This document shows, piece after piece, positions 7,449 to 48,376 of a stretch of DNA of 64,000 bases. Every line of letters begins with the position of its first letter. Position 1 is the first letter of the stretch. Location of the stretch: the NCBI GenBank assembly GCA_000002445.1, contig CH464491.1, forward strand, positions 1,792,001-1,856,000. Reading direction: 5' to 3'. Both the position numbers and the translations under genes were made by a program. Below the pieces are notes generated by a model. The model had not been told where the DNA came from, did not search any database, and saw only the letters and a program-made list of their open reading frames with translations. The stretch is from Trypanosoma brucei. Lineage: Eukaryota.

Positions 7449-8660
7449 TTACCAATCGTCCACAGCAATACCGAAATCACGATCCCTGCAGCAGTAATAT
7501 GGTGCCAGCAACGACCACAAGTACAACAGTACAGCTGACCATACCGTGCCGCTTCGCACCCAGTAGGCGATGTTAATACTGCTTTTCATTTTGTCCTCAC
7601 CCATGCCACTTACATGCCAACCCGTTGAAAGCATCGCCAAGTACATGGAACCGAGCATCATTACGGTGTAGAAAAACATGTAACTGCTGAGGTGGCCGCT
7701 CTCCTCGGGATCCTCCTCAACATCATCATCCCCAACATGACCGAACCCTTTGCTGCTACCCCCTGTGGAAACAACGCTATACACAAGCGTGAAACCGCTC
7801 ACAATACTACCAATAATTATTTGCTTCAATGAACCGGCCTCATTAGGTGGTATAGCAATTGTGTTACAGTTGGCATCGTCGCCCATGCGGAGTGTAACGA
7901 ACATGACACCAGCCGTGTAGGCAAAGACAATTCCGCTTGATACTATCGAACCATGCGGTAAATAAATCGACAGCACCGTGTAAACCACAGCACTGATAAG
8001 CACGCTCAAAATCGCGAAAGCGTTGTAATTGCAGTTCACATTTGGGACAAACACCACAAAGGACATAGCAGCAATTGCAATGCCAGCTATGTAACTCAGC
8101 ACGGCAACTATCAGCAGATACCACAACCATTTGCTGTTTTGCTCCATCCTCTCCCCCCACTCCTCAGTCCACTGATAGCTAAAGTCGATGAGGAACACCA
8201 CATTTATTAGCAGGAAGAGTCCTGAAGCAAAGACGCAGGTGTACGCATAATATGCAAAGAATGTATTTGGTACCCACATTGTCGCAAGAAATAACAGGCC
8301 AAGTAATATGGTCTTGGCGAAGAAGAACCGCCTCTGAAACTCCACACGTGACTCGGTGTCGATGCAACACGTAAGGTCCGAGACAGAAAGAAGGTGCAAG
8401 AAGAAGAACAAAGAAAGAGAGAAACTGACGCGATAGGCAAGAACTTCACCCACACAAAAGTTTGCGTCCCCTTTGCCAGCGTACTCACAGCCTTTCTTAA
8501 TAAGTGGGAGATGGCTCAGCAGTGTAAGAAAGCCGCGCAACAACATGGTCGCAACGATTCCCACGAAGAGGTACAGAGAATATTGCACCCGCAACACAAC
8601 TGTTGGGGAAAGAGAAGTACCATCACTCGAACCCATCACAACTAAAAAAAAAAGAATCAC
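7449..8660 (-). CDS. Serine incorporator (Serinc/TMS1) family multi-pass membrane protein
   Basis: 403 aa with ~10 hydrophobic helices. LIDFSYQWTEEWGERMEQNSKWLWYLL matches the Serinc core LVDFAHSWNESWVxRMEEGNPRLWYAALL. C-terminal WVRSGTVWSAVLLYLWSLLAPYYCCRDRDF matches Serinc [21 protein letters not shown]...SRDFS. True start may be the second Met (MGSSDG..., ATG at 8636). Confidence 0.8.
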   Translation of the reverse strand: MILFFLVVMGSSDGTSLSPTVVLRVQYSLYLFVGIVATMLLRGFLTLLSHLPLIKKGCEYAGKGDANFCVGEVLAYRVSFSLSLFFFLHLLSVSDLTCCIDTESRVEFQRRFFFAKTILLGLLFLATMWVPNTFFAYYAYTCVFASGLFLLINVVFLIDFSYQWTEEWGERMEQNSKWLWYLLIVAVLSYIAGIAIAAMSFVVFVPNVNCNYNAFAILSVLISAVVYTVLSIYLPHGSIVSSGIVFAYTAGVMFVTLRMGDDANCNTIAIPPNEAGSLKQIIIGSIVSGFTLVYSVVSTGGSSKGFGHVGDDDVEEDPEESGHLSSYMFFYTVMMLGSMYLAMLSTGWHVSGMGEDKMKSSINIAYWVRSGTVWSAVLLYLWSLLAPYYCCRDRDFGIAVDDW

Positions 8661-9649: not shown

Positions 9650-12532
9650 TTATTCAAAACGCGGATCATCAACCGCAGCTGAAAAATGAACGTAACCCAT
9701 CTCCCCACCTCCTATGCTGTAGGTTTTGCGAAGCACATCTGCCTGTGCAGGACTCAGCTGTACACCGAGAGACATAAGCGTTGCAAAAAATTGTCCCTCC
9801 TTTACAAACCCCTTACGAGCCCTGTCGTATTGCCTGAACGCAGGAAGCGAGACGGATCGCCGAGAGGCGAGGGTACGGCGCACCCTATCCATCACAGATG
9901 CATGGAAAGATTTATCACCTTCTTCTGTCGCCTTTTCCGCCGGTGGGGCGGCTGCAATGTGGGGAAGATTTTCGGAATTCCCAGCGGCCGCGTAAGCAGC
10001 AAAGGTTGTGGCGCTTCCACTGTCGTTCCGTTGCTGTGGCCCCATCCGCCGTGTAATGTTTTGCAACATATGTGTCACCACTGCCAGGAAGGTGGGGTAG
10101 TCCACATGATTTTCCATCTCCGGATGAGCAAAAGAGATTTCGAGCACCCTCAGTTCCTCCTCCGTAAGCTCGATACCGAGAATAGACAAGCAGTGCCTAA
10201 ATCGTGAGTTTGTTACATGCCGGTGCCGCAATTCATCACCGTCTGGGAAAAACTCCGCGAGTCTCGGTTTGCGCTCTTGAAGAAAGTAACAGATCTTCAG
10301 CAGCACCTCATCCAGAAACTTTTCCTCATCCCCAACGTTTCGTTGTGTGCTGCCGGCGCATGTGGATGCTGGAAGTGACGCTGTGAAGGTTGCACCGTTG
10401 CCGTTGATAGTCTTTTGAAATTCACCTACAGCCAACTCGCCTAGGCCAATGTCCCCAACAAAACGCCTGTATTCGATGGACTCCTTGTCATCCGCCGCCG
10501 CGTAGTAACGAGACAGTAGATCAATCTCCGCTGCCGTCAGGGCAAAGCGATGGCGGGCAAGTCCCTGCTGGAAGTTTGTTCGGGTAATCTTCGCCCGGTG
10601 GAACCGGTCAAAGTCTGCAAAGAAGGGTAGCAGGAGAGCCTGGTGTGAGCTCACGTCGTGGGAAAGTCGAGCACGCAGTCGTCCAAGCTCCTCAAGTTCA
10701 GCAGCAGTAAGCTTATCATCGGGGTTCTGGATCGTTTCCTTTAGCGTAATAGCCGCCTCGCCCTTTGCACTACGGGATGCAGTAAAATCATATCTGGTGG
10801 AAACGGAAGGCACAGCCGACGGCGCTACCTGCCCGATATCAGCGATGAAGCGGTTCGTGTCAACGTGATCCCGCACCTTTGTGGAGGCGTATTCCTTCTT
10901 CAGCAGGTCCGCCTCACTGGGATGCAACTTCACACCGGCGATACCGAGAGCAACTATGAACTTGTCCGTTTGCACAGTCCCGCCGCGAAGCGGATCAAAG
11001 TCAAAGAAGAACTCACTCACACGCAGGTGACGTTCCTCCGCCTGCATTGCAATCTTCACCAACACATTCACTACCGTGTCGGCAGGAAGTGGCCGCGACA
11101 GCTCAACACTCTTTTGCAGCTCTGCCATAGCAGAAGAGTTTAAAATCCGCGACGCCCCCGTGTCCCATTTCACTTCATCTACGTCCATGACGAACTGGAA
11201 GTAATTTACCTCATCGGCGGGGCCGCCGTCGGGAGCGCGAATGGAATACCGCCTCACGAGAAGCTCGATCTCTTCCGGCTTCAGAAAAATTTTGTGAGTT
11301 GCCAGCGAGCGAATAAAGCGGGAAGCAGTGCATGTGCGGTGCTCGTAGATACCCTTCCGTGCGCGGTCGAAATCATGCATAGTTGGAACCAGATGAATAC
11401 GGTTAGAACGAATAATCTGCCGCACCTTCCGCAACACCGCCTCCGTCTGTTGCTGCTCTTGTTGATTCGTTGCATCGATGAACTGCCCGGGCGCCCTTGT
11501 TTGTGCCAAATAGTTCGCTGAACCGCCGTCAGCCTCCGTGTGCCGCGGGTTGGTGTCAGCAAGGAACTGAACATAATTCACACGCACGAAAGGATTCTCA
11601 TCCATTCCTGGCTTTTCAACCAAGGTTGATTCATCGGCATACGCTCGCGTGAGCATCGCTATGTTCTCCGCAGTAAGTTTTGCGTCAACAAGGCGGAGCT
11701 GGCCGAGGGCAGACTCAAACTGGGGTGCAGTGACAAAGCCCGTCTTGAAGTGATCATAGTCACGCAGGTAATCGTCACAGCGCAAGTGATACATAGAGAA
11801 TTGTTCTCGCAACATGCGCAGCAAACCATCAACGGTGTGAAAGCCGCTTCGGCTCCGCAAAAAGTTCTTCAGTGGAGCAGCGGTGGGCGAATGTTGACTC
11901 ATTTCTTGGGGCTTATCCTCGATGTCATTGCACCATGCAGAGTACAAAACATCCCCGTCCTCATTCTTATACTTCTTAATGAATAGCTTAATTACCTCCT
12001 CACGCAGTCCTTCAAACGGAATGCAGCGACGAAACACCGAGGCCGATACCTTACCGCTTCGGAAATGGTCAAAATCTTCAAAGCATTTACGCAACTGGAG
12101 CCCGCGCACCCGAGAGATATCACGGATCGATTGCATGGCGGCGCGCAACTGCGCCTCCTCTGCATCCGACAGCGAATTTGGCTTGCGCTTCAACGTGGTG
12201 AGCAACTCCGGAGGCGGTTCCTCTGCCTGCAGCGCCTGAAGGAAGTTCGTATAACTCACAAGAGACCCGGCACCACGTGGTGTCACTTCGCCTGAGCCCC
12301 CATGAGTGTATGGAGCTGCAAAGGCATCGGTAATTGCATCAAACTCTTCATCGCTGACCGGTATGTTATTAACGGCAAGTGCCCGACGCAACTGCCCTGC
12401 TGTGATACGGCCAGAGTTCAACTTGTCGAAATCGGTGAAGAAGTCATTGAGACGCAGGCGACGCTGGGCAGCATGCACTCGCACTCGTTGAAGTACGTCT
12501 CCTACTAGAGACATCGGTAAAGATGTCTGCAA
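9650..12532 (-). CDS. Large (960 aa) protein composed of ~8 degenerate EF-hand-like repeat units; possible Ca2+-binding/flagellar protein
   Basis: Eight ~90-120-aa repeats. Each opens with an acidic loop of the form (F)FxDFDxxxxGxIxxxxF followed by a ...LG(I/V)xLxxxExxxLxxxY helix. Examples are FFTDFDKLNSGRITAGQLRRAL, FEDFDHFRSGKVSASVFRRC, FFFDFDPLRGGTVQTDKFIVALG, FFADFDRFHRAKITRTNFQQGLA and FRQYDRARKGFVKEGQFFATLMSLG. The loop is 2 residues longer than a canonical EF-hand, so Ca2+ binding is uncertain. Confidence 0.7.
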   Translation of the reverse strand: MQTSLPMSLVGDVLQRVRVHAAQRRLRLNDFFTDFDKLNSGRITAGQLRRALAVNNIPVSDEEFDAITDAFAAPYTHGGSGEVTPRGAGSLVSYTNFLQALQAEEPPPELLTTLKRKPNSLSDAEEAQLRAAMQSIRDISRVRGLQLRKCFEDFDHFRSGKVSASVFRRCIPFEGLREEVIKLFIKKYKNEDGDVLYSAWCNDIEDKPQEMSQHSPTAAPLKNFLRSRSGFHTVDGLLRMLREQFSMYHLRCDDYLRDYDHFKTGFVTAPQFESALGQLRLVDAKLTAENIAMLTRAYADESTLVEKPGMDENPFVRVNYVQFLADTNPRHTEADGGSANYLAQTRAPGQFIDATNQQEQQQTEAVLRKVRQIIRSNRIHLVPTMHDFDRARKGIYEHRTCTASRFIRSLATHKIFLKPEEIELLVRRYSIRAPDGGPADEVNYFQFVMDVDEVKWDTGASRILNSSAMAELQKSVELSRPLPADTVVNVLVKIAMQAEERHLRVSEFFFDFDPLRGGTVQTDKFIVALGIAGVKLHPSEADLLKKEYASTKVRDHVDTNRFIADIGQVAPSAVPSVSTRYDFTASRSAKGEAAITLKETIQNPDDKLTAAELEELGRLRARLSHDVSSHQALLLPFFADFDRFHRAKITRTNFQQGLARHRFALTAAEIDLLSRYYAAADDKESIEYRRFVGDIGLGELAVGEFQKTINGNGATFTASLPASTCAGSTQRNVGDEEKFLDEVLLKICYFLQERKPRLAEFFPDGDELRHRHVTNSRFRHCLSILGIELTEEELRVLEISFAHPEMENHVDYPTFLAVVTHMLQNITRRMGPQQRNDSGSATTFAAYAAAGNSENLPHIAAAPPAEKATEEGDKSFHASVMDRVRRTLASRRSVSLPAFRQYDRARKGFVKEGQFFATLMSLGVQLSPAQADVLRKTYSIGGGEMGYVHFSAAVDDPRFE

Positions 12533-12939
12533 TCTAATCTACACACTCACTTAGAAGTTAGTGATGACGAAGCGGTACAATTCCTCTGGACCGACACACG
12601 CCTCGTTACGAATGAACTCTCCTACTACTTGGAGTTTCCTGGCGGTCACCGAAAGAGGGGAAAAAGAGAAAAACAAGATAACGCAAGAACGGGAGGTAAA
12701 GGACAAAACGGCTAGTATCTAAGGTACGCACGAGAAAAAAAAAAGTCGACGTGGGCTAATTCAGTGCACGGGAGAACAAATGGGAAAAGGAGGAGCATGG
12801 CTTGTTTTCATCCAATTTATCTTCTCTACTAGAGCCCTCACCACCGGTGCACCTCTCCCCTTTATACATCCCCCTACACAGTAGTAAGTTTGGAGTAAAA
12901 AGGGGGAAAAAATATACGGCACTAAGCGAGGCGTAACTC

Positions 12940-14654: not shown

Positions 14655-16052
14655 TCACCTGCCAGCCGCACGTTTCCGTTTTATGCCTTTCTTCACTGCC
14701 GTCAGTCCCGGCAGTTCGAAGGGGAAAAAGAAGTCAGCTATCCCACAGCTTCCGTTATCCGGTACCAGTTGGCCAGACCTTGCTGTGCCACTCCTAGGCA
14801 ACACAACGTCCTGCTCGTTCACATCAGCGGAAAGGAAAATGTCGTCCCAACCCTCCAATGAGGTCCGAGTGGGTTCCCTTTTGACAGAATCCCGCTTTAA
14901 AGCATCGGGTGCCTCTCCATGGGATGGAGTACGTGATGGCAAAGCGCGTTCACCGCCCCCTTTCATGCCTCGACTCCGTCCACCCTCACCACTGCAAGCC
15001 GCTGAATTCCCATCAAATCTCGCCCTTTGGCTTGACGCAAGGCTGCCACCTCCGACTCTCCTCCTCTTTATAACTATCGGTGACTGTGATCGGGTGACCT
15101 TTCCAGATGTACCACTTGGGGAACAATGAATGTTGACCACAGGTTTATCGGTATTCGAAGCACGTTCCGCGGATCCTACAGCACGCGTATTGACATCACC
15201 GTTGTCTTTCAATGGGGCGACAGCGGGAGAGCCCATACTCGAGGCCTCACCCTCACCCTTCGCCTCCGTGTTGGCACTTTCCGCCAAACTGCAAGGGGAA
15301 GAAACGAACGGCGGTGTCGGCAGGTAATCCATTGCAGTTGGGAGACAACACAAAAACTGCTGGATGCGTTGAATGTGTTCCCCTTCACATAGGCAGCGTG
15401 CGAATACGTGGAAACGTAAAAGTAGTTGATCACTCGAAAGCGACTCTTCCGCACCCAGTTTAGAGCCAGGGCCAAACTCTATCGTAAGAAGCGGCTGCTT
15501 CCACGATGTTCCAGAGGAGGGATCGAAGAGTACTGAAGGTGATGTATCCCCAGTTGCCAAGCGCTTGCCGTTCACAAATGTTCCATTTTTACTTCCACAA
15601 TCACGGACGCTAAGAGCACACCACAACCCCGCGTCCGGTGAACCACGCAGCGGTTCTCGACCAGCGAGTTGCACGACACAGTGCCGACGCGAGAGAAATG
15701 AACCCAGCAGCTCCCCTTCAAACTGTATTACTCCACTGTTCTCCCTGGGATCCCTACCAAGTGGAAGGAGGCAAACGAGAGGAAGATTTGCCATCCCACA
15801 TCGATTCCCTCCACCTGTAGAGTTGAAGTTCTGAGAGGGAAGTGAGCAACCGTTCTCCGTGCTTCTAGATAGGAAGCGAGCCACAAGACGGCACCGTTTG
15901 TAACCACTCACTGAGGAACTTCGGACACGCATCGGTAACAAACCCGAAGGAGTCTCCTCCAGGCACTTTGTTGGCTGGGATACTGTTGCACTCAAACCGC
16001 CCAGGTCCGCAAGTGCCTTCAGGTTATGTGCAGCAACTATAGCAATCTCCAT
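14655..16052 (-). CDS. FHA (forkhead-associated) domain protein with Ser-rich low-complexity C-terminal half and basic C-terminal NLS-like tail
   Basis: 465 aa. HCVVQLAGREPLRGS...CALSVRDCGSKNGTFVNGKRL matches the FHA core signature (Gx(S/T)xNGTFVNG). The C-terminus KKGIKRKRAAGR is NLS-like. Confidence 0.7.
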   Translation of the reverse strand: MEIAIVAAHNLKALADLGGLSATVSQPTKCLEETPSGLLPMRVRSSSVSGYKRCRLVARFLSRSTENGCSLPSQNFNSTGGGNRCGMANLPLVCLLPLGRDPRENSGVIQFEGELLGSFLSRRHCVVQLAGREPLRGSPDAGLWCALSVRDCGSKNGTFVNGKRLATGDTSPSVLFDPSSGTSWKQPLLTIEFGPGSKLGAEESLSSDQLLLRFHVFARCLCEGEHIQRIQQFLCCLPTAMDYLPTPPFVSSPCSLAESANTEAKGEGEASSMGSPAVAPLKDNGDVNTRAVGSAERASNTDKPVVNIHCSPSGTSGKVTRSQSPIVIKRRRVGGGSLASSQRARFDGNSAACSGEGGRSRGMKGGGERALPSRTPSHGEAPDALKRDSVKREPTRTSLEGWDDIFLSADVNEQDVVLPRSGTARSGQLVPDNGSCGIADFFFPFELPGLTAVKKGIKRKRAAGR

Positions 16053-25354: not shown

Positions 25355-26947
25355 TTAGCCGTTCTCACTGCTCACGGTTTGTCCTGGAGCTCCCGACGAT
25401 GGTGTCGTCAATGATGCGCGCATTAATGCTGACGGTGCAATTCCCAACTTCACATTCTGTGGAGAAACCATGGATGACGCCACGCTATCACTATTTTCGG
25501 TGATGCTGCTACTGCCACCCCTAACACCACATTCGCTGGCTCCACTCTCACTCATCTGAACACCCTCCACAACACCCTTTCGTAGGAACTCCCTTGCTTT
25601 TCGCAACAACTCCTTCTTGTCCATACCCTCCCAATCCCGCAGCGGCTTCGACAATGGGCTGTATTCCAACACGGGGAAAGAGAGCCCACCCAAGTGCGAA
25701 GCGTATATGCTCTTTCTACGGGGTTGTCTATGACTAATAACGACACGGTGGAATAGGTCGAGGCCTTTATGGCGGCTGTCTCGCCCGTATCGTGCGCTAT
25801 TATGTGTTTCCCGCGGTGGAAGGCTACCATGAACCTCCACAACACCGGTACGTGGTGGCGGTCCCTTAAGGGCACCACAGGCACCTGATGTTGATATTAA
25901 CTCACTCCCTTTTGGCAGAACAAGGGCTCCCTCCTCCTCCTCACGCGCCATGTCAATAAGATAGGATTTTAGGTCGAGTATGTGCTTGTCATCCACCTCC
26001 GAAGGGTATAAAGCATGTTCAAAATGCGCAGCCCGCAAAAGAGCTAAGCGAGCCGGCTCCCTCTTCTTCTTCTTTGGAATTAGGTCCCCCGAATCTCTCC
26101 GCAGCGCCGTGCATAAGGGCGCCTGTGCTGTTAACGGCGCGGCAGCTAGCATCTTGGCTCCACATTTGATATCCTCATAGGCGTTTTGCAATTCTTTCTG
26201 TGCGATACTACTCAACCTCTGCTGCTGCTCACTGTTGTAAAACGTTGCTCGATCGTATACTCGCTGCATCACATGTTCTTCAACATACTTCTTGAGCGAC
26301 TCCACATGAGTGGTATCCAACACAGCGAAGTCGGCGAGAGGAGACTTGTTGCAGTAGTCTCTCTGGATGGCAAGTAGGATGTTTTTTGGATGTTTAAAGC
26401 GACTCATAGCAGAGGCAGAGTACTGGTTAAAGACGTGTTGGTCAAGGTTGGGGTCAGGTGCCCACACATAACCCTCACAGGCCCCAATGTAACGTGTGTT
26501 ATGGCGTAGTTGATAAGCGCATTCGAGACTGGCCATAAAACACGAATCAAAGACCATCGCCTCAAATTTTCGCTTGCCGAGAATGGAGGCGAGCTCATGG
26601 CATTGCAACGCCAGTTTGTTCTCCTCTAATTCCAGGTAATCTCCCATCCCATGACCACCGTACACAAAATAACTCCGACCGGGGTCGTGGCAACGCTGTA
26701 GAAAGTCTTCAAGCATGTCCTGACGATAGCCAACAACATTTTCGTAGTTCTTCAATGTGTAGTCGCTCCCAGTGATACTTGCTTCAAAGCTCCCACCACT
26801 GGAGTTAAAGGCAAGCATGCAAAGATCGGTAACGCCCTTTACCTTCCTCATTTGCTGAAACTTCCAGAATGGCCACCCCGACACATTTTTAATGCAACTG
26901 CAGACCACGATGAGGCGGTTATTTGGTCGTGGGGCTCGGGACAACAT
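25355..26947 (-). CDS. PNT1: Clostripain-like C11 cysteine peptidase; matches T. brucei PNT1 (kinetoplast-maintenance peptidase)
   Basis: 530 aa. The caspase-fold catalytic dyad lies in FVYGGH(99)GMGDY and MVFDSC(136)FMAS. His99 and Cys136 are the residue numbers reported as the PNT1 active site. The C-terminal half is a low-complexity extension. Confidence 0.8.
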   Translation of the reverse strand: MLSRAPRPNNRLIVVCSCIKNVSGWPFWKFQQMRKVKGVTDLCMLAFNSSGGSFEASITGSDYTLKNYENVVGYRQDMLEDFLQRCHDPGRSYFVYGGHGMGDYLELEENKLALQCHELASILGKRKFEAMVFDSCFMASLECAYQLRHNTRYIGACEGYVWAPDPNLDQHVFNQYSASAMSRFKHPKNILLAIQRDYCNKSPLADFAVLDTTHVESLKKYVEEHVMQRVYDRATFYNSEQQQRLSSIAQKELQNAYEDIKCGAKMLAAAPLTAQAPLCTALRRDSGDLIPKKKKREPARLALLRAAHFEHALYPSEVDDKHILDLKSYLIDMAREEEEGALVLPKGSELISTSGACGALKGPPPRTGVVEVHGSLPPRETHNSARYGRDSRHKGLDLFHRVVISHRQPRRKSIYASHLGGLSFPVLEYSPLSKPLRDWEGMDKKELLRKAREFLRKGVVEGVQMSESGASECGVRGGSSSITENSDSVASSMVSPQNVKLGIAPSALMRASLTTPSSGAPGQTVSSENG

Positions 26948-31354: not shown

Positions 31355-33205
31355 TCACTCAGTCCCCCTGCGGTCCCTTGAGCCATAAGGTGCAGCACTC
31401 GTCTCCGCTGGCAACTCAAGCCGTATGGAATTGATATCATTTGCACCCTCCGGCTTTTTAGGGAGGGACTCGGCTGCAACCCGGCGGCCTTCCAGTGCCG
31501 ATCGAACCAACTTGAGGTATTCGCAGTGCACGTATGTATTTGTTCCAAATGCAGTCAAGTTGAGACCGAGCATAACGAGAAGTGGCATTTGAACACACAC
31601 ACGCTCCAAGCAAACCTCCACCCCGAGTTTGTTAGCTTCATACGTATACCACTCCCCGTACAAGAGACGGTTGTACAGTATGGTGGAGCAGGCCGTGGCG
31701 ACGAAACAGTAGTTGTAGTGTAACCCCAAATCCTTGGCGTAAATTGTGTTCACAACAAGGATAGTCACCGAGGCAATGATGCCATTTCCAATGGCACCCA
31801 CAACAAACGCAAACGGTAATACGTATTCATTGGACACGGTGAGAAAGAGAACAAGCATGATGGTGATAGCGGCTGTTGGTATGAAGAGTGTGACTGTGAT
31901 GGGAATACGATCCTCCGCCTTGCGCTTCTGTGACCATATCTCAAGGTAGCTCATAATGAGACGGCCCGCGGCGCTTCCCGTACCGTTCAGCACAGTTAGT
32001 AAAGTATTGAGGGAGTCATCAATCTCTTTGCCGGCAAGGGCAGCGAAAAGGAAGCGGGTGTTTATCAAGACAACAAACTCAGCCCCAAGGGTACAAAATA
32101 GTGACCAAAAGAGCGCCCACAGCCTCAATGTCTTGACGCTATCAATGAAACGCGTCTGGTACTGTGGTGGGATGTAGTCCAGCTCATCTATCTCACCCTC
32201 GGACGATCCGTCGTCCCTTCTTTGGTCTTCGATGCTCCCCGCGGAAACCTGGCTCTCCTTACGCCAGAACCTCCAGCTTTTATCCAGGCATTTGGCCGGT
32301 AGGCAAACAATTGGATACAGAAGCCATATAACCACAAACACTATTGTAGAGGCCTTTCGGTTGAACGGCGACACATCCGTATACGCAATCAGGGCACTTT
32401 GTAGGGGCAGAACAATGATGAGCACAGTGATAATGAGCAGCCCAATAGCAAAGCGCAAGGTAGGAGGCTCCTGTCTTAAATACACAGCCTTTGTTGCCTC
32501 ACGTCTCGTTATCTCCTCTTCCGTTAGGTGCTTGAGCATATAGTCCGTTATTATGTAAGGAGCCGAACGCATCACGAGCATCACAACAATACCAACGACA
32601 GCCCCAAACGCCAGAAGGAAATAAAAGTAATTCGTGGGGTCGTCCTCGAAGAACGCTAACTGTATTGCCCCCAGCAAGGCGGAGCCCAAACCAATAAACG
32701 TCTTCATCACCGCCACGATCCAACCCTTTGCAGTAGGAAACTGAGTTAGGGTCGTCACCACGCAAGCAAGGTCATAAAGGCCACTTGCAAAGTTGAAGAT
32801 GCCATTAAAAACGCACAACAGAACAACGGAAGCGGTAATGGTACCCCCAAACGTCAGTGCCATGAAAAGCAAACCGGTGGCCATCATGACAAAACCCATC
32901 ACCAATACGGGGAAAACACCGAAGTAGTCGTACACAAAGGCGTAGGGCAGACCAAAGTAAGATAAGACAAGACCAACGGTACTGATCGTCGTCATTTCGG
33001 CCTGTGTGAAGTGGTACCGCTCTTGCAAATCTCCGCTGAATATGTTGAAGCCGAAGGTGAGGGACACACAAACACAGCCGAAAACACCGACTACGAGAAT
33101 CGCGAAGCGCTTCGGTTCACTTATCACAAGCTTGGGTTCCGGTCCAACCTCAGTAGCACGTTCATCTCCTTCAGTGACACTCATTTCGAGCAAGCGCAAA
33201 GGCAA
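31355..33205 (-). CDS. Major-facilitator-type polytopic transporter (nodulin-like family candidate)
   Basis: 616 aa with ~12 hydrophobic helices in 6+6 arrangement and a charged central loop (SAGSIEDQRRDDGSSEGEIDELD). The N-terminus is cytosolic. The probable real start is MSVTEG (second Met). Confidence 0.7.
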   Translation of the reverse strand: MPLRLLEMSVTEGDERATEVGPEPKLVISEPKRFAILVVGVFGCVCVSLTFGFNIFSGDLQERYHFTQAEMTTISTVGLVLSYFGLPYAFVYDYFGVFPVLVMGFVMMATGLLFMALTFGGTITASVVLLCVFNGIFNFASGLYDLACVVTTLTQFPTAKGWIVAVMKTFIGLGSALLGAIQLAFFEDDPTNYFYFLLAFGAVVGIVVMLVMRSAPYIITDYMLKHLTEEEITRREATKAVYLRQEPPTLRFAIGLLIITVLIIVLPLQSALIAYTDVSPFNRKASTIVFVVIWLLYPIVCLPAKCLDKSWRFWRKESQVSAGSIEDQRRDDGSSEGEIDELDYIPPQYQTRFIDSVKTLRLWALFWSLFCTLGAEFVVLINTRFLFAALAGKEIDDSLNTLLTVLNGTGSAAGRLIMSYLEIWSQKRKAEDRIPITVTLFIPTAAITIMLVLFLTVSNEYVLPFAFVVGAIGNGIIASVTILVVNTIYAKDLGLHYNYCFVATACSTILYNRLLYGEWYTYEANKLGVEVCLERVCVQMPLLVMLGLNLTAFGTNTYVHCEYLKLVRSALEGRRVAAESLPKKPEGANDINSIRLELPAETSAAPYGSRDRRGTE

Positions 33206-36974: not shown

Positions 36975-38540
36975 CTACAATTTTCGGAAGTACTCGGTAA
37001 GTAAGGCAGGGCCGAAGCCTGTTGCCCCATTGCTGTTAAACACTGGGTACGCCAAATCCACGTGGATGTGCGCGCCAGTGAATTTCGGGCTCAAATGGGT
37101 AGTAATGAAGTAACCAGCACATGAAACACCAGCATTGTCACGTCTCTCCATCAAGTTGGTCATGTCGGCATGATTGCTCTTGAACTCGGGCTCGTGATAT
37201 TCCGGGCAGTAAAGCACCGGGAAGCATGTCTCCCCTGACTCCCGTCCCGCCCGCAACATTGCAGCTTCAGCCCCCTCCTCGTTGACGTACAATCCCGCAT
37301 GGTGGCGACCAGTGGCAATACCTTGTGCTCCCGTAAGAGTTGCCATATCGATGACAACATCTGGGGTAAAGGACAACTCATTCGTCGCGTGGAAAACACC
37401 ATCGCCGAGCACAATGCGGCCCTCTGCGTCAGTGTTGATTACCTCCACCGTCTTGCCAGACTTCATAACGATGATGTCGTCGTTTCTGTAGCTCTTAGGA
37501 CCAATGGCGTTCTCCGCGAGGCACAATGTGCAACTGAGCTGCACTGGCTGCTGAAGCCGCACAGCTGTCAGAAAACCGCAAAACACGGCTGCCGCTCCAC
37601 CCATATCATGCTTCATCAATTTCATGTAGTCGGCCGGCTTGAGCGCGAGACCGCCACAATCATACACGATGCCCTTGCCGACGAGGGACACCTTTTTGAC
37701 GGGAGTGCCCTTCGGTGTGTACAACAGCGTTACGAGACGAGGAGCCTCAAAAGCAGCCTTTCCCACACTGTATATGCCTCCGTAGCCGCGCTCACACAAA
37801 TCGTCACCACAAATGACGTCCACATCGAAGCCAAGCGCCTTTGCGTAGCCTTGCGCAATTTCTGTGAAGGTTGCAGTGGTTAGCAGGTTGGGAGGCGCGT
37901 CAACAAGACGCTGGCAGAGTTGCGTCGAAGTGGCAACCGCCTCCAAGTCCTTTGGCGGGATCGCGGGCGGCTCCGGGAACACCACCTGCAACCGGCTGAC
38001 CTTACCACTGTTGTAAGCCGCCGCTGCCGCACCATCCTTTGCGGAGAAGTTGTGCTTTCCACAGCGTGCTACAGCAGCAGCGATGGGAAGGACAGCATTG
38101 GAAAGCACAAAGACATCCACCGTTGCATTAGGCTCTTTAACTTCGTCCAATGCAGCAGTTACAAGTGCAGTCACAACATCCGGTCGGGCAGGGCAGTTGT
38201 TGCGAGATGCCTTCGTGGGCACCTCACCAACGACAACGCGCACGAACTTTGAGCCTGCCGCATTCGCAAGTCCCTCCACCAAAACGCCGTACGTCCCACC
38301 TTCCTTCACCCGCTCAATAGCTTCAGCAACAGCGGGATTGTAAAATGGTAAACGCTGGACGGCGGGGTCACGGAGTTGCTTGTGAGTTCCAACAAGAACA
38401 GCGAGTCCTGAGGACAGTACACCCTTCTGGTTGCTTTCGTAGGCGGTGACATCGGTGAAGCAAACATTGGTTTTGTATTCGACGCACGACTGGACGAACG
38501 CAGAAAGCTCTTTTGCTTCGGCCTTGGGTAAAGTAGGCAT
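36975..38540 (-). CDS. M17 family leucyl aminopeptidase
   Basis: 521 aa. Carries the M17 signature NTDAEGRIVL, the VGKGIVYDCGGLALKPADYMKLMKHDMGGAAAV Zn-site region, and the HIHVDLAYP C-terminal motif. Confidence 0.9.
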   Translation of the reverse strand: MPTLPKAEAKELSAFVQSCVEYKTNVCFTDVTAYESNQKGVLSSGLAVLVGTHKQLRDPAVQRLPFYNPAVAEAIERVKEGGTYGVLVEGLANAAGSKFVRVVVGEVPTKASRNNCPARPDVVTALVTAALDEVKEPNATVDVFVLSNAVLPIAAAVARCGKHNFSAKDGAAAAAYNSGKVSRLQVVFPEPPAIPPKDLEAVATSTQLCQRLVDAPPNLLTTATFTEIAQGYAKALGFDVDVICGDDLCERGYGGIYSVGKAAFEAPRLVTLLYTPKGTPVKKVSLVGKGIVYDCGGLALKPADYMKLMKHDMGGAAAVFCGFLTAVRLQQPVQLSCTLCLAENAIGPKSYRNDDIIVMKSGKTVEVINTDAEGRIVLGDGVFHATNELSFTPDVVIDMATLTGAQGIATGRHHAGLYVNEEGAEAAMLRAGRESGETCFPVLYCPEYHEPEFKSNHADMTNLMERRDNAGVSCAGYFITTHLSPKFTGAHIHVDLAYPVFNSNGATGFGPALLTEYFRKL

Positions 38541-38916
38541 GGGACTTTCCTTCTTATTTATTGACTTGTTTTGCGTGCGTTTCTTTCCTCCCTCCCTTTG
38601 TGCTTCAGGTCCCCTTATGCACCTTATCTCTTATTGTTGTTGCTACACTCCCTTTTTAACAAATTCCTGCTAACGTAAGTCCCAAGCAAGAAATATTGCA
38701 CTTCTGTCAACTGATATGTACTTCGGTTGTTAGCAACTCAATGGCGATATACCGGTGAAGTTCGAACGTACTCCTTTCAAAAAAAAAAGTCGAGATTTGC
38801 TTTTCCATGGCAAGAAGAAAAAAAAGGAGAAAATAGAGGCGCAGGAGTGACCGCATATTGGTATCAAGGGTGTGAGAGCCTTGGTATCTGTCAAGTTTAA
38901 GAATTTTTTTGCCTTT

Positions 38917-38945
38917 CAAAAAAAAAAAAAGACAAAGACAAAGTT
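38917..38945 (-). promoter_or_regulatory. Polypyrimidine tract on the coding (minus) strand upstream of the leucyl-aminopeptidase gene; candidate trans-splicing signal
   Basis: The plus strand reads caaaaaaaaaaaaagacaaagacaaag, which is ctttgtctttgtcttttttttttttg on the minus strand. AG dinucleotides follow on the minus strand before the ATG at 38540. The tract is ~400 nt upstream, so closer tracts may be used instead. Confidence 0.3.
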
Positions 38946-41900
38946 ACCCCATTTCTTCCGTCAACGCAACAGTGGAAGCGTAGAAACAGAGAAAGGGACA
39001 AAGAAACATTAAAAACAGCAGTAAGGGTGATAATGATAATAATAATAATAATAAAAGTACGACCTGTCTCCTGATTTAGCACTTGTTTGGCCCGTAAATT
39101 TTATCCATCCTGCGGGCGACTTGTCATTACCGCCTCCCCCCCCCCCGCCCCTCCTCAGGTAATAATCCGCTGATTCGCTTCTTCAACTTACCTTTCCTTT
39201 ACCCTTACTTTCCACATCTTCTTTTTCCCCCTTTTTAAAAAAATCTCTCTTACTTTTCCTTTTTCCCTTTTCTGTTCCTTTTGATTCAATTTTCCCCAAT
39301 AGTTCTCTTCTTCTCTCTCCTTACATTATTTTTCTTCCTTAGGTTTCATTTTTGACATATTTCCCCCATTCCCAGCACCCATACATCTACAACCCCCTCC
39401 AAATGTTGCAACAGCAAAACGGAATAGGGAAGAAGGTGGAGACAGGACAGGAGAAAAGAAAAAAAGAAAGAAAGAACCAACGTCTAATTCGGATATTCAA
39501 TTAGAGAAGAGGGAATAAACTTACGCATATATATATATATATATATATATATTTCCCCTCCACCCTTTCAACTGTAGGATATATATAAAAAAAAGTAATT
39601 GATTGCTAATGCTACTATCATTATTATTAGAAAAAATGACAATAATAGTGATAATAGCAATAACAATTATTATAATAACAGGAATAGCAGTTACATATAT
39701 ATAGTTTTAATATAGATATAAACAGCACGAAACGCCGTGAGTAGTAGTAGTAGTAGTATTCCACCGGCAACTTGTGTAAGTCCAAGTGCACGTGCAGAAA
39801 AGTGAGTGCATATTTTTTTTTTAATTAGAAGTGCTTGGTTGTTTGTTTGTTATTAATGATAATTGAATGGAAAGGGGGAGAAATGAATTTAAATTAGCGT
39901 AGATATTTTTATGTTCGTAAAATAAAGGAAGAAAAAAAACAGTAATTGTGGTCACAAAGACAGCAACTGTGGCAGAATAATATGGAAGGTCTAAATGAAC
40001 GAGAAAAAAAAAACACCGCTGGAGTATCAGAAGAATGTCCCGACACCTTCAGAAACAAAAAACAAAAGTGGGTGAAAAATGATTTCTCATCATTATCAAT
40101 ATATATATATAATACATACATGTTTATATGCATGTATGTATATCATACCCCTACGGGGTCAAAAAATGATTGTAAACATAGCTTAAAACGTTTCAACTGG
40201 ATAAAGAAAGTAAATAACATAAGCGGCGACAACAACTAAAAAGAGAAAAAAAAGGTTATGAAACATGCAAAGAAAAAATAGTAGTAACAATAACAATAAT
40301 AAGAGTAATAGTAATGGCAGTAGTAACAATAATAATAAAAATAAGATAGCGAAATTGGCAGAAGCAACACTTCCTTCCACCCACCACAGACGCCACGCAA
40401 AGAAACAAACAAACAAACTAACACGTAAACGCAAACATGCACGCATATACATATATACATATGTGCATACATTCATTCCTTTTTGTAGCCAATCCCTCAT
40501 TCAATATCTCTGAAAGCTGCAATAATCATTGTAGTAATTCTTATCACAACAGTTCCTGCTTATGTTCCTGTTGTTGTTTTAACAGAAGGGGACAAGAAAA
40601 GGAAAAGGAGAAGCGAATGGGAAACCCTTTTGCCCTTAACCCCTTTTCGTTTCTTCCCCTTTTTTGTTTTGTTTTGTCTTGTTGTTTTTCATTTTTTATT
40701 TTTTTTTCTTTTTGTGATTCTCCCTTAGCTTTTCACTTCTGGACACCCACAGCGCCACGCCTCGATGAGCCAAATCGCTCAGTTGGAGCGGGTAAACGAA
40801 ACAAAACAAGCAAACAAATACAGAGTAAGCAGTAATTTAAAAAAGGGGCTCCAAACAGGCACAAGTATGAACTGTACGCTCACACGCGCAGCAGTTCATC
40901 TCTCACACATGTTAACAAACAAGACATGCTATCACCGAAAATAAGCAGAAATAAGCAGAGTGAAAACAAAAAAAACGAAATAAACGAAATAAAAACAAAA
41001 CGCAACCGGACGCATGCATATACAAACAAAAATGTATACACGTACATACGCACGTGCATACATAAATATATATGTAATTTTTGTGATATATTTATAACAT
41101 ATATATATATAGATAGATAGATAAATTTATCAAGAGGTGTGAAAGGGACAAAAAGAGAGAATTGGAAGCATATGTCATCAACTACATATCATCTGTCACC
41201 GGCCGACACAACAAGCCGCAGTAAACACAACAGCGGGGAAAGGAAAATACACAAATGCGTATACAAGTAAAATAATCAAATTATATACCTGCATTTGTAC
41301 GTGTTTGTGTTTACATCTTTCATTTCCCTCTTCTTGTATTTTCTTTTCTTTTCTTCTCTTCTTTCATTACTTTCTTATTTCATTTTTCAGCCCATTCAAA
41401 ACCAATTTTGGAAATTTTAAGTGAATGGGCTTTCCTCTTTTTCTTTTTCGTTTTTTTTTGTTTTCAGCACAAAATTTCCTTCTTTCCCCCCTCCGTCCTG
41501 CTGCCGCTGTCGCCCCTTTCAGCTTCAAACTCATTGTTACAAAAAGCAACATCCCGCTTCTTTTCGCCATGATATGTGTTGTAGGCATTCAAATACGGTA
41601 CATTTTTCTTTCATACACTCATCTCCTCACCTGCAAACTTTTCCCTATTATTTTTGTTTTGTTTTTGTTTTATTCTTCTTCCTTCCTTCCTTTCTTCCTT
41701 TTCCCCCTTCATCTCTCTCTCTCTCCTTATCCACCCCATTTTTTTTCTGTTTCCATCATCACTACTTTTCATTATATTTTATTAAAATAAAATATAACGC
41801 AGATCTTACTCATTTCCTCTTTTGTTTCTTTCCCCTTCCTTTTGTATTCTTTTTTTTTTCATGAACTTCTCCACAGCTCTTTTGTCATCTCCCTTCTTTG

Positions 41901-42047
41901 TTCTTTTTGTTTTATTTTTGAGACATGACCGAATAATCTCCGCTGAATGAAAGGAGGAGAGGGGGAAAAAAAAAACTCACACGCTCCATCATGCATTCAA
42001 CGTTTTCCTTTTCTTTTTTTTCGTTTCTTCTTTTTTTTTTTAATTTA

Positions 42048-42049
<2 letters not shown>

Positions 42050-42078
<29 letters not shown>
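42050..42078. repeat. (AT)n microsatellite; a similar one sits at ~39527-39552
   Basis: Direct read: atatatatatatatatatatatatatatt. Confidence 0.9.
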
Positions 42079-42080
<2 letters not shown>

Positions 42081-45000
42081 CTTTTTTATTACCAATTAGA
42101 ACTATTATTAATATCATTATTTTGCTCCCTTTCTCTTCATCTTTTTTTCTTTTTTCTTCTTCCTTCTTTTTCTTAATGTCCTCCGAGAGGGGGGGGGGTA
42201 AAAAAAAAATGACAAAAAAAAACACACGCCAAATGAAAGAAGAAGAAGAAGGGAAAAAAAAAAAACAGACGCATGCGCATGTTTTTGTTAAGATTCAAAA
42301 ACAATTCTACACCTTCTATTGCGCCGCCACGACACCCTCACCACAACCACCACCATATTTTGAAAAATAAAAGACAAAAACCAAAAAAGAAAAAGGGAGA
42401 AAAAACAAAAGCTCTGAGAAAATCATTAAAGTCACACGTGGAAAGTTAACAAAAATAATAATATAAGTAAGAAAAAGAAGGAAGGAAAGGAGAAAAAGAA
42501 AGGCGGCATATGATACGAAACATCGATTACATTTATTTTATAAAATACCCACTTTGGTAGGAGGGGAGAAAAAATATATATATACACACACACCTCCGCT
42601 AAATTCTCTCTATTTCTTCTTTTCTTTTTTCTTTTCCGTGGGTGTGTTGTTGTTTTTGCTTTTTCTCTTTTTTTTGAAAAAAAATTACGTTTTTTTTTTT
42701 CCACGGGGATCAAATTCTTTCCTTCCGTCAAATCTCCCACACCCGCCCTTGTCAAATTTTTATTTATTTATTTATTTTTCTTTCATTTTGTAATTCCTTC
42801 CTTCCTTCTTTCGTTTCTTTTTCTTTTTCTCTTTTCTTTTGAAAACTTTACTTTTTATTTCCTTTCACCCCGAGTTGGTTGTAAAATTGTTGTTGGTGGT
42901 GGGTGGGAGCAGAAAAGCAGCAAAATGAGGGGGAAAAACAAAAAAAAAGGTGGTGAGCGCATGAGCAAAATAAGACGTGAAATAAAAAAACAAAAGTATT
43001 TATTTAGTATTTATTTTATTTTATCTTTTTTCACTCACCCTCCCAAATTGTATTTGCTACGCTCTCATCAGATACCCGTTACAACAACCACAAAAAGAAG
43101 AAAAAAGGAAAAAAAGAAAAGGAAAAAAAAAGAATGACGAAGCAAGCAGAACGACAACAACAACAATAACGGTGGTATAAATTTAGAAGGCAAAAGTCAA
43201 AAGAGTACAATAATAATATTATTAGTAACAGTAAAGAAAGCGAGTTCGTTTATTAGCTTTTTTAAAACAAAAAAAACAAAAAAAAAGCGTTTTGAACTTA
43301 TTTACATCACGTTCTGGAATAATCTCTTTTTCCTCCTTCCTCTTTCCTTTCTCACGATCCTCGAACCGAACAATAGCCGAACGACGCCACTTTTTTATAT
43401 TTTCTTTCTCTTTTCGCGGATAGAAGTTTGAACGCATAATAACCGTAAAAAAAAAAAAAAATCATGCATGTATTCATATTCTTACCGTCTATTTATATCT
43501 CTTTATACCTCTCCCTTTTTTATTCTCTCTTTCTTTCTCTTTCTCTCTCTTACACACACACACACACATATACATACACATACACATATAGACAGTTTCT
43601 AGATTTAATTGAGAGCACCAGTGACGGAAATGTAAACTTAATATTGTAGGGAAAAAGAAAAAAGGAAACAAAAAAGGACACAAAACACATTCTCCAGTGC
43701 TCTGCAAAAAAGAAAAAAGAAATTAACGGATACAAGAGGGTGTGCAAAGGGGATGGGGAAAAAAAAAGGAAATATATAATAAAACATATAAGAAAACATG
43801 TTCATATATAAAACATACACGTATATCTCTGTGTATATTTTATTTTCATGCATTATATTCCCCATTCATTCATTATTTGTTTTAGTTTCCTCCCCCTCCC
43901 CTTTTTTTATTTTATTTTATTCCGTGTGTGTGCATGCGTGTGTGTGTGCATGCGTGTGTGTGTGCATGCGTGTGCGTATATCTGAATTTGTGGTTTTATA
44001 CTCTCTTCCTTTCCATTATTTCATTTGTACGCAATCAAAAATGTTTCAACAATCGCACATGTTTCATCTTATACGTATTCCTTTTCTTTTCCAGTTTCTT
44101 TACTCATTTAGTTATCCATCCACTTATTCATTCATTATTGATGTGTACATTTTATATGGAGCTTCCTTTAGGGTAATGGAGGGAAACACGTCATTTCCCC
44201 TTTTTTTCTTTTTTTTTAAAAAAAACAAAACAAAACAAAAAGACATAAACATGAAAGCATTAAAACATGTAAAAAAGGGGGAAAAAAAAGCAAAATGAGT
44301 GCTTGGAAGGATGTAAGGAAAATGTGTAAGTTTGTGGGGTGGGGGGTGGGGTGGGGGGGAAAAAAAGACGCGCAAGTGGGTGCACAATAATAAATACTGG
44401 TAAGAAGAAAAAAGAAAAAGAAATAAAAGTCAACAAATATATATATATATATAATTACATATAATTATATATATAATGCAGAGAGTAAACTTAATGCACC
44501 TCACTTGCTTCCCCCTTTCCAGTTAATGCTGCACGCACTTCCTTCACAGCACCGCCACCCCACCTCCTCCTCCTCCCCCCCTCCCCCTTTTCTTTAAAAA
44601 AAGATAAAAACTTTAGATTTTTTTTTTTATTCGTCTCTTTTCTTTATTCCAAAACGGGATATTTTTGATTTGTCAGGCACATCATCCGCAAAATATTTTC
44701 ATCACATGTCTTCTCTTCTCTCTTTTGTTTTTATTTTTTATTTTTTATTTTCTTCTTTTCTTTTCATTTCGTTCATTCACATTAACTTCCCGCCACTGTT
44801 TCTGGAGACGCGTTATGAAAAAAAGAGTTTGAAACCACCGACACAAACAAACACAGCGCACACACACGCAGAAAAGAAAAGAAAACATCCACCAGGTAAA
44901 TAAATAAACAAAATGAATGAATGAAAGCAATAAATGAAAGCAATAAATAAAAAGGGAAGTGAGAGAAATGATGGAGAGAAAGCAAAAAAAAAAAAAGAAG

Positions 45001-48000: not shown

Positions 48001-48376
48001 ACGTCAAAAGGAAACTGGTGTCCACTACATTTGTTGCATCCCCATCCTTTTCACCTTTTTTTCTGCCATTGATTCGTTTAACCTCGTTCCCCATCCGGGG
48101 AGGTCGCACAACTCGAGGCATACGTCAGATGTTCTGTTTATTTCCCCCTCACTTCTCTTCTTTCCCCTTCTCTGCACAAAAACAAGGGAACGGGAGAAGC
48201 ACTTCACCCATTTATTATCCCTCTTATTGGTTTAAAGTCGAAACAAAACAACGTCCCGCTGGCTCCTCCACTCCACGACATGATGCCCCACACGGGGAAT
48301 CCGATGAAAACAAAACGGAACACAACACCAAAGCAAAAGGAGCAAAATAGCGTTCACTCCGGTCAGGGGTTCGGTC

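Follow-up and report, generated by a model that had tools for sequence, protein, structure and literature searches.

An eight-lobed EF-hand protein of Trypanosoma brucei is the orthologue of the doublet microtubule inner protein CFAP115

Introduction

CFAP115, or FAP115, is a microtubule inner protein (MIP) of the axonemal doublet microtubule (DMT) that has been described in Chlamydomonas, Tetrahymena, Trichomonas and trypanosomatids. FAP115 is bilobed, with two EF-hands in each lobe; its N-terminal domain (NTD) sits on protofilament A02, its C-terminal domain (CTD) lies between A02 and A03, at the corner where four dimers meet, and its knockout leads to propagating DMT defects (PMC8742875). 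The Tetrahymena protein, TtCFAP115, has a 32-nm period with three copies per 96 nm, touches two RIB72A and two RIB72B, and is absent in the RIB72A/B double knockout (PMC10105768). Evidence for RIB72-dependent recruitment comes from Tetrahymena only (PMC10105768; PMC8693976), where CFAP115 knockout cells also swim more slowly and show a longer power stroke (PMC8693976). In Leishmania tarentolae, the period of LtCFAP115 is likewise 32 nm, and its model comprises eight main ordered blocks together with short linker fragments (Doran et al. 2025, PMC7617938). Nine MIP knockouts significantly slowed L. mexicana, and because CFAP115 was not among them (PMC7617938), its contribution to trypanosomatid motility may be small or redundant. 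FAP115 has been described as a putatively calcium-binding MIP (PMC8595878) and is listed among the MIPs with putative calcium-binding domains (PMC8595878; PMC7617938).

Here we analyze a Trypanosoma brucei gene whose product is the T. brucei-group orthologue of CFAP115. The protein is already known from publications, which also cover its fold, flagellar location and periodicity, and the PDB contains a chain of exactly this sequence. Our additions to that work, both modest, are an analysis of loop register and calcium ligands and the recognition of lobe-specific invariant loop features. Since trypanosome motility is needed for infection, the MIPs are of some applied interest.

The gene encodes a chain modelled in the T. 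brucei doublet microtubule

The DNA analyzed, referred to as the window, is a 64,000-nucleotide stretch of the T. brucei genome. An open reading frame (ORF) spans positions 9650–12532 on its minus strand, as reported in a first-pass annotation made from the sequence alone, but the 960-residue length given there has to be reduced to 954. The first codon of the listed ORF is TTG, which can begin translation only in the bacterial code that the ORF lister used; an in-frame TAG lies just upstream of it, and no ATG occurs before codon 7, at window position 12514. We therefore rejected the TTG start and the 960-residue protein in favor of the ATG. The resulting 954 residues are also the length of the deposited PDB chain and of the GenBank proteins. 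The gene and its upstream region comprise the following features:

9650..12514, (-) strand: CFAP115/FAP115 coding sequence, 954 codons plus stop, beginning at the first ATG and matching the deposited PDB chain
12515..12532, (-) strand: six codons TTG CAG ACA TCT TTA CCG, 5′ UTR, non-coding; the deposited protein starts MSLVGD
12639..12700, (-) strand: candidate polypyrimidine tract tttacctcccgttcttgcgttatcttgtttttctctttttcccctctttcggtgaccgccAG followed by AG (12640-12639), read from the sequence

The last of these is a possible spliced-leader acceptor. The neighboring genes lie on the same strand and have unrelated housekeeping roles, as expected of trypanosomatid polycistrons, so the genomic context is uninformative about function. 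Two 530-residue ORFs considered as possible paralogues proved unrelated, and an Rfam scan of the window returned no family at the gathering score.

In all of its 954 residues the deduced protein is identical with chain 3J of PDB entry 9e5c, the [quoted passage not shown], in which it bears the title “EF-hand domain-containing protein”. At first pass the protein had been proposed to be a flagellar or cytoskeletal Ca2+ sensor or scaffold, or else a structural EF-like fold that binds no ion. The identity bears out the idea of a flagellar scaffold: T. brucei CFAP115 is a component of the doublet microtubule, and the checks suggested at first pass (HMMER, structure and localisation) are in effect already in print. 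The entry includes three CFAP115 chains (3J, 3K and 3L), a number per 96 nm that fits a 32-nm period. The same protein is recorded for strain TREU927 (GenBank XP_828720.1; UniProt Q385C3). T. equiperdum SCU70748.1 is identical as well, and the T. b. gambiense protein differs by a single substitution, K677R.

Eight EF-hand-pair lobes make up CFAP115

The protein consists of eight homologous units of ~90 residues, placed 105–137 residues apart, each of which is an EF-hand pair. The units are listed below in protein order (954-residue numbering), with the first loop of each:

12218..12505, (-) strand: unit 1, EF-hand-pair lobe, residues 4–99; first loop DKLNSGRITAGQ from D30
11879..12148, (-) strand: unit 2, EF-hand-pair lobe, residues 123–212; first loop DHFRSGKVSASV from D149
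11540..11833, (-) strand: unit 3, EF-hand-pair lobe, residues 228–325; first loop DHFKTGFVTAPQ from D254
11162..11446, (-) strand: unit 4, EF-hand-pair lobe, residues 357–451; first loop from D383, with a 5-residue insertion
10820..11074, (-) strand: unit 5, EF-hand-pair lobe, residues 481–565; first loop DPLRGGTVQTDK from D507
10430..10687, (-) strand: unit 6, EF-hand-pair lobe, residues 610–695; first loop DRFHRAKITRTN from D636
10043..10315, (-) strand: unit 7, EF-hand-pair lobe, residues 734–824; first loop DELRHRHVTNSR from D760
9653..9904, (-) strand: unit 8, EF-hand-pair lobe, residues 871–954; first loop DRARKGFVKEGQ from D897

Several analyses bear out the eight repeats that had been read from the sequence. 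With DxD motifs at residues 28, 147, 252, 381, 505, 634, 758 and 895, the spacings are 119, 105, 129, 124, 129, 124 and 137. A self dot-plot (25-residue window, BLOSUM62), which had been named as the check on internal periodicity, showed nine off-diagonals scoring 48–63, and the maxima of thirty shuffled sequences averaged 31.8 (SD 4.1) and reached 47 at most; periodicity is thus present. A Hidden Markov Model built from any seven units recovered the eighth every time (E 5e-12 to 3e-21), and profile–profile comparison related every pair of units, mostly at >93% probability. The conserved downstream helix noted at first pass, L(G/A)xx(I/V/L).L..E..L...Y, was found in seven of the eight units.

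The proposed EF-hand-like fold also held. Pfam EF-hand_7 (E 1.7e-14) and EF-hand_6 (E 4e-11) match the protein, with unit 1 as the best stretch for both; calmodulin matches were obtained, and the AlphaFold2 (AF2) model contains helix–loop(beta)–helix twice per unit. In this model, the structure prediction that had been recommended, each unit forms an EF-hand pair with paired short strands. pLDDT is 70–90 within the lobes and <50 in the linkers, and the low pTM of 0.25 is what would be expected of beads on a string. Superposition of the predicted fold on the 94-residue chain 9e5c_3L gave a TM score of 0.92 and an rmsd of 1.6 Å at 100% identity. CFAP115 is accordingly a string of eight EF-hand-pair lobes with poorly ordered linkers between them. 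Among the 35 possible 4+4 splits of the units, the odd/even split ranked top by profile similarity, narrowly (11.8 vs 11.1 for the next-best), which lends weak support to an alternation of N-type and C-type lobes.

The eight-unit layout is shared with CFAP115 of other lineages

An array of eight paired units had seemed unusual at first pass. It is not, as the same layout occurs in CFAP115 of Tetrahymena, Trichomonas and Leishmania. Matches were strongest to L. tarentolae CFAP115 (9e78_0l, E 1.9e-175), followed by Tetrahymena CFAP115 (8g2z/8g3d, ~1e-57; 8g3d_1L, E 2.7e-57), the T. vaginalis chain 9d5n_CG (E 1.3e-48) and Chlamydomonas FAP115 (6u42_5X, E 2.9e-05; Foldseek TM 0.53 over 232 columns). 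The first two-lobe module (residues 1–204) can be aligned over its whole length with two-lobe modules of the Tetrahymena and Trichomonas proteins, and a Phytophthora homologue of similar length aligns at all eight loop regions.

The lobes probably brace the lumen of the A-tubule

The best explanation of these observations, and one that we hold with high confidence, is that the protein is the CFAP115/FAP115 luminal brace, a Ca2+-independent array of bilobed modules on the A-tubule. By analogy with the structures in other organisms, the eight lobes would group two by two into four bilobed modules resembling calmodulin, and each of these would correspond to a complete Chlamydomonas FAP115 (230 residues). 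On the luminal side of protofilaments A02/A03, every 8-nm tubulin dimer would be covered by one module. Within a module, the N-type lobe would lie at the A02 intradimer interface and the C-type lobe would be wedged between A02 and A03, where four tubulin dimers meet; the modules may also touch the DM10 domains of RIB72, which would be needed for recruitment. Four such modules, or eight lobes, would produce the 32-nm period, and combination of 32-nm CFAP115 with the 48-nm MIPs would yield a 96-nm lumen repeat containing three CFAP115 copies. For T. brucei, we take the protofilament position and the contacts from Tetrahymena, Chlamydomonas and Leishmania. By bracing the A-tubule both laterally and lengthwise, CFAP115 would make it stiffer and more stable during beating.

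The loops have canonical length and lack the canonical calcium ligands

The acidic loop had been described as two residues longer than the canonical EF loop. This was an error of register. In ungapped alignment with the calmodulin loops, the second D of the DxD motif falls at position 1, the G at position 6 and the I/V at position 8, and the AF2 model has a short beta-strand at positions 7–9 counted from the second D (e.g. E36-38 for D30). Because the calmodulin register and the AF2 strand both place the second Asp at position 1, the loop has the canonical 12 residues; the first D of the motif sits at position −2, inside the entering helix. Only unit 4 has a longer loop, by virtue of its 5-residue insertion.

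The first-pass warning that Ca2+ coordination need not follow from the loop chemistry was well founded, as all 16 loops fall short of the canonical ligand set. Position 1 of the first loop is Asp in all eight units, and G6 and I/V8 are mostly retained. Position 3, by contrast, is hydrophobic (L/F/A) in every first loop (unit 4 counted from D383), Glu or Asp stands at position 12 in 0 of 16 loops, and the second loops are degenerate or contain insertions. The best loops fill two of the four canonical side-chain ligand positions, compared with four of four in all calmodulin loops. The same pattern of non-canonical first-loop residues is kept across 18 kinetoplastid orthologues. Separately, EF loops that are non-canonical, or that have Gln at position 12, in some cases retain a weak affinity for Ca2+ or Mg2+.

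Given the absence of an acidic residue at position 12 in all 16 loops and the hydrophobic position 3 of the first loops, we infer from the sequence that the CFAP115 lobes act as a structural, Ca2+-independent lattice brace. The incomplete ligand sets and the conservation of the first-loop substitutions among kinetoplastids argue for caution over the label “putative calcium-binding” for CFAP115.

Two lobes carry features of their own. The first-loop insertion of unit 4 (DRARKG-IYEHR-TCT) is invariant among the kinetoplastid orthologues, and so is the motif EFFPDGDELRH around the first loop of unit 7; both are candidate points of contact with the lattice or with other MIPs. The conserved first-loop pattern D-x-(L/F)-(R/H/K)-x-G-x-(I/V)-T-x-x-Q, together with lobe-4 IYEHRTCT and lobe-7 EFFPDGDELRH, could instead be something other than dead Ca2+ sites, namely a non-canonical ion or ligand switch or a set of lobe-specific address codes. 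As address codes, the lobe-specific loops would fix the register of 32-nm CFAP115 against the 48-nm MIPs; if so, CFAP115 would help to set the 96-nm luminal repeat and might also link that repeat to the external 96-nm ruler. We consider this reading unlikely, and regard the conserved loops as more probably surfaces of contact with tubulin or other MIPs than as ion sites.

Doubtful to a slightly greater degree is a luminal Ca2+ sensor at the CFAP115 site, in which some loops would bind Ca2+ non-canonically and alter the contacts between lobe and tubulin, tuning doublet stiffness or waveform, for example in the beat reversal of trypanosomes. The fold is indeed that of a true EF-hand pair, the first-loop Asp at position 1 and most of G6 and I/V8 persist, and the published grouping of FAP115 with putatively calcium-binding MIPs points the same way. 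The ligand losses at positions 3 and 12 and the decay of the second loops speak against it, and the conservation of non-ligand residues points to selection other than for ion coordination. The packed lumen of the A-tubule would, moreover, leave little space for the open/closed transitions of EF-hands.

Other EF-hand relatives do not account for the protein

Mammalian EFCAB6 is also a multi-EF-hand MIP, located near the inner junction, and the trypanosome protein might be its trypanosomatid counterpart and not that of FAP115. EFCAB6 matches were weak (E 0.0016-0.0064 with the first module; 0.08-1.5 at full length). Pfam EF-hand_11, which we take to be a family built on DJBP/EFCAB6, scored just under its cut-off (21.4 vs 21.7 bits) over residues 621–693 (960-residue numbering), within unit 6. 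No stretch within the EFCAB6 matches reaches threshold alone, however, and the CFAP115 matches are stronger by tens to >100 orders of magnitude and extend over the full length. Faced with marginal matches on one side and far stronger ones on the other, we rejected orthology to EFCAB6 and hold it to be very improbable; EFCAB6 itself, at the inner junction, is reported to be a mammalian addition (PMC8595878).

A soluble or cortical calmodulin-like multi-EF-hand scaffold with no link to the axoneme would suit the names of some orthologues (“Calmodulin”, “hypothetical protein” or “hypothetical protein, conserved”) and the match of unit 8, the closest of the units, to calmodulin (E 4.7e-07), but it merits next to no credence and is in practice refuted, given that 9e5c, the structure of the T. 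brucei doublet microtubule, includes a chain of exactly this sequence, that the best homologues are all CFAP115 chains in DMT structures from four other organisms, and that the likeness to calmodulin is limited to the generic EF-pair fold.

Comparison with known CFAP115 systems

With CFAP115 as the preferred identity, the closest described system after the T. brucei chains of 9e5c themselves is that of L. tarentolae (9e78/9y6s), whose CFAP115 is a full-length orthologue of 979 residues, compared with 954 in T. brucei. Its eight ordered blocks correspond to the eight T. brucei lobes, whereas its linkers differ in length and sequence; related leishmaniine orthologues are ~35% identical to the T. 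brucei protein. CFAP115 of Tetrahymena thermophila resembles the trypanosome protein in having eight EF-pair lobes in about 940 residues, at ~21% identity over the Foldseek alignment. In Tetrahymena the protein is a MIP of the A-tubule lumen on A02/A03, and its knockout makes the DMT less stable; the functional data belong to this ciliate protein only. FAP115 of Chlamydomonas reinhardtii (6u42_5X, 230 residues) shares the bilobed EF-hand module and, by homology, the luminal site, but supplies one module per 8 nm in place of four fused modules per 32 nm (PMC10105768). With calmodulin, T. brucei CFAP115 has in common the helix–loop–helix pair and a 12-residue loop with D1, G6, I/V8 and a beta-strand at positions 7–9; unlike calmodulin, it has no ligand residue at position 3 in its first loops, or at position 12 in any of the 16. 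Proteins of the calmodulin type are free sensors, whereas CFAP115 is built into the microtubule lattice.

Gene model and identity

On the minus strand at 9650–12532, an ORF is present that was annotated in the first pass as a 960-aa protein. Its opening codon, TTG, counted as a start because the ORF listing used the bacterial code, and was dropped. An in-frame TAG lies directly upstream and the first ATG read from the sequence is codon 7, so the eukaryotic protein is 954 aa. Some 125 nt 5′ of the ATG there is a long polypyrimidine tract and then an AG, which together look like a spliced-leader acceptor.

9650–12514, minus strand: CDS of the 954-aa protein, ATG at 12514
12639–12700, minus strand: polypyrimidine tract and AG, candidate trans-splicing acceptor

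The gene product is CFAP115 (FAP115), already identified and structurally solved in T. brucei. The 954-aa protein showed 100% identity over its full length to PDB chain 9e5c_3J. [quoted passage not shown] The runners-up were all CFAP115/FAP115 chains from DMT structures, and the protein agrees with the CFAP115 family in its full-length homology, its presence in the DMT and its EF-hand-pair lobes. T. equiperdum SCU70748.1 is the same sequence, T. b. brucei TREU927 XP_828720.1/Q385C3 falls in the same cluster, and K677R is the difference from the T. b. gambiense protein. Orthology to EFCAB6, a mammalian multi-EF-hand microtubule inner protein (MIP), was rejected, as its matches were only marginal.

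Structural matches after 9e5c_3J
L. tarentolae CFAP115: PDB 9e78 / 9y6s, E 1.9e-175
Tetrahymena CFAP115: PDB 8g2z / 8g3d, E about 1e-57
Trichomonas vaginalis CFAP115: PDB 9d5n, E 1.3e-48
Chlamydomonas FAP115: PDB 6u42, E 2.9e-05; Foldseek TMt 0.53

Genomic surroundings

The window (1–64000) contains 15 ORFs of 250 aa or more, every one of them on the minus strand, a pattern that fits a single trypanosomatid polycistronic unit. No functional link to CFAP115 was found among the following neighbours.

7449–8660, minus strand: Serinc
14655–16052, minus strand: FHA-domain protein
25355–26947, minus strand: C11/clostripain-like peptidase
31355–33205, minus strand: nodulin-like protein
36975–38540, minus strand: M17 aminopeptidase

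The ORFs at 25355–26947 and 48377–49969 (minus strand), both exactly 530 aa, were rejected as duplicates, as BLASTP gave no similarity (best E 5.5). Judged from its sequence, 38541–48376 is an unusually long gene-free gap within the same-strand array: ~9.8 kb of AT-rich DNA (GC 0.32–0.41 vs about 0.5 elsewhere) in which neither strand has an ORF >166 aa. A single short tandem repeat, (GTGTGTGTGCATGCGT)x3.2, lies within it at 43924–43974. An Rfam scan of the window returned no family at gathering score.

Eight repeats, each predicted to fold as an EF-hand pair

DxD motifs recur at residues 28, 147, 252, 381, 505, 634, 758 and 895 (spacing 105–137 residues), and a self dot-plot (25-residue window, BLOSUM62) gave nine diagonals scoring 48–63, against maxima averaging 31.8 (SD 4.1, top 47) in 30 shuffles. 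Each unit was recovered by an HMM of the remaining seven (E 5e-12 to 3e-21), and profile–profile comparison, using unit profiles drawn from 18 kinetoplastid orthologues, gave probabilities mostly >93% for all pairs. These analyses agree that the internal repeats proposed in the first-pass annotation are real, and the downstream helix motif it had described, L(G/A)..(I/V/L).L..E..L...Y, was seen in 7/8 units. Grouping odd against even lobes ranked top of 35 possible splits, by a narrow margin. With unit 8 as the probe, eight units were likewise found in both the Tetrahymena and the Trichomonas protein, and orthologues measure ~950–1000 aa across trypanosomatids (958 aa for a Phytophthora homologue); the eight-lobe array, first thought unusual, is therefore the common form of the family.

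Pfam matched EF-hand_7, a pair model, over four stretches (E 1.7e-14) and EF-hand_6 (E 4e-11), and unit 8 by itself matched calmodulin (E 4.7e-07). An AlphaFold2 model built from a 19-sequence alignment, a check suggested in the first pass, predicted in all units a leading helix, then helix–loop (short strand)–helix–helix–loop (short strand)–helix; each unit is, in the model, an EF-hand pair. Mean pLDDT was 70 (lobes 70–90, linkers <50), and the low pTM of 0.25 is in keeping with lobes that behave as independent beads along a flexible string. The predicted domain fold matched an experimental chain fragment, 9e5c_3L, with a TM of 0.92 and an rmsd of 1.6 Å.

Proposed role in the doublet microtubule

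FAP115 has two lobes, each containing two EF-hands; its N lobe lies at the α/β intradimer interface of protofilament A02, its C lobe occupies the four-tubulin-dimer corner between A02 and A03, where an EF loop touches the lateral interface, and its knockout causes DMT defects that spread along the axoneme (PMC8742875). Chlamydomonas FAP115 is one two-lobe module repeating every 8 nm and Tetrahymena CFAP115 comprises four modules with a 32-nm repeat; the latter touches two RIB72A and two RIB72B, needs RIB72A/B for docking, and brings the luminal repeat to 96 nm, with three copies in it (PMC10105768). Tetrahymena knockouts swim more slowly with a longer power stroke (PMC8693976). L. tarentolae CFAP115 is listed at a 32-nm period, and the residues built for it make up eight main ordered blocks and some short pieces of linker (PMC7617938 supplement). 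Nine MIP knockouts significantly slowed L. mexicana, CFAP115 not among them, and its share in trypanosomatid motility may be subtle.

For the T. brucei protein, the analysis itself shows its identity in sequence, its repeat architecture, its EF-pair fold and its presence in the DMT structure. Its first two-lobe module aligns end to end with Tetrahymena and Trichomonas modules; this alignment, the eight lobes, the three 9e5c chains per 96 nm and the narrow odd/even split fit the orthologue model. By analogy with those orthologues, the protein would occupy the A02/A03 site, contact RIB72 and stabilise the doublet.

Loop register and calcium ligands

The first-pass annotation described an FFxDFDxxxxGxI loop two residues longer than canonical, having wrongly taken the first D as position 1. 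In an example alignment, FTDFDKLNSGRITAGQL pairs without gaps to the calmodulin C-lobe segment FRVFDKDGNGYISAAEL, a register that makes the second D position 1, G position 6 and I/V position 8, with the first D in the entering helix at −2. AlphaFold2 strands fall exactly at positions 7–9 from the second D (for example, 36–38 for D30). The loop is therefore the canonical 12 residues, with unit 4 and its 5-residue insertion the sole exception.

11327–11353, minus strand: lobe-4 first EF loop with insertion, G-IYEHR-TCT, aa 388–396
10214–10249, minus strand: lobe-7 motif (E)FFPDGDELRH.HV, aa 756–767

The lobe-4 insertion is invariant or nearly so in 18/18 kinetoplastid orthologues, has pLDDT <50, and is probably a contact loop ordered only once on the microtubule lattice. 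The lobe-7 motif, identical in all kinetoplastid orthologues, is the protein's most conserved loop; with Arg/Gln/His at the Gly-6 position in these orthologues, it clearly does not read as a Ca2+ site. A role for the conserved odd loops as a switch of non-canonical type, or as a code for the register of the 96-nm luminal repeat, seems to us very unlikely.

Position 3 is L, F or A in 8/8 first loops, position 12 is Q, V, K, N or R (Glu/Asp in 0/16 loops), and all second loops are either degenerate or interrupted by an insertion. In the first loops, the non-canonical residues are kept across the 18 kinetoplastid orthologues. At most two of the four canonical side-chain ligand positions are filled in any of the 16 loops, against 4/4 in all four calmodulin loops, bearing out the earlier caution that loop chemistry did not guarantee Ca2+ coordination. 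From this chemistry, we infer that the protein would be Ca2+ independent; published texts describe FAP115 as putatively calcium-binding. Compared with canonical Ca2+-binding EF-hands, the T. brucei protein keeps the fold but lacks the ligand set.
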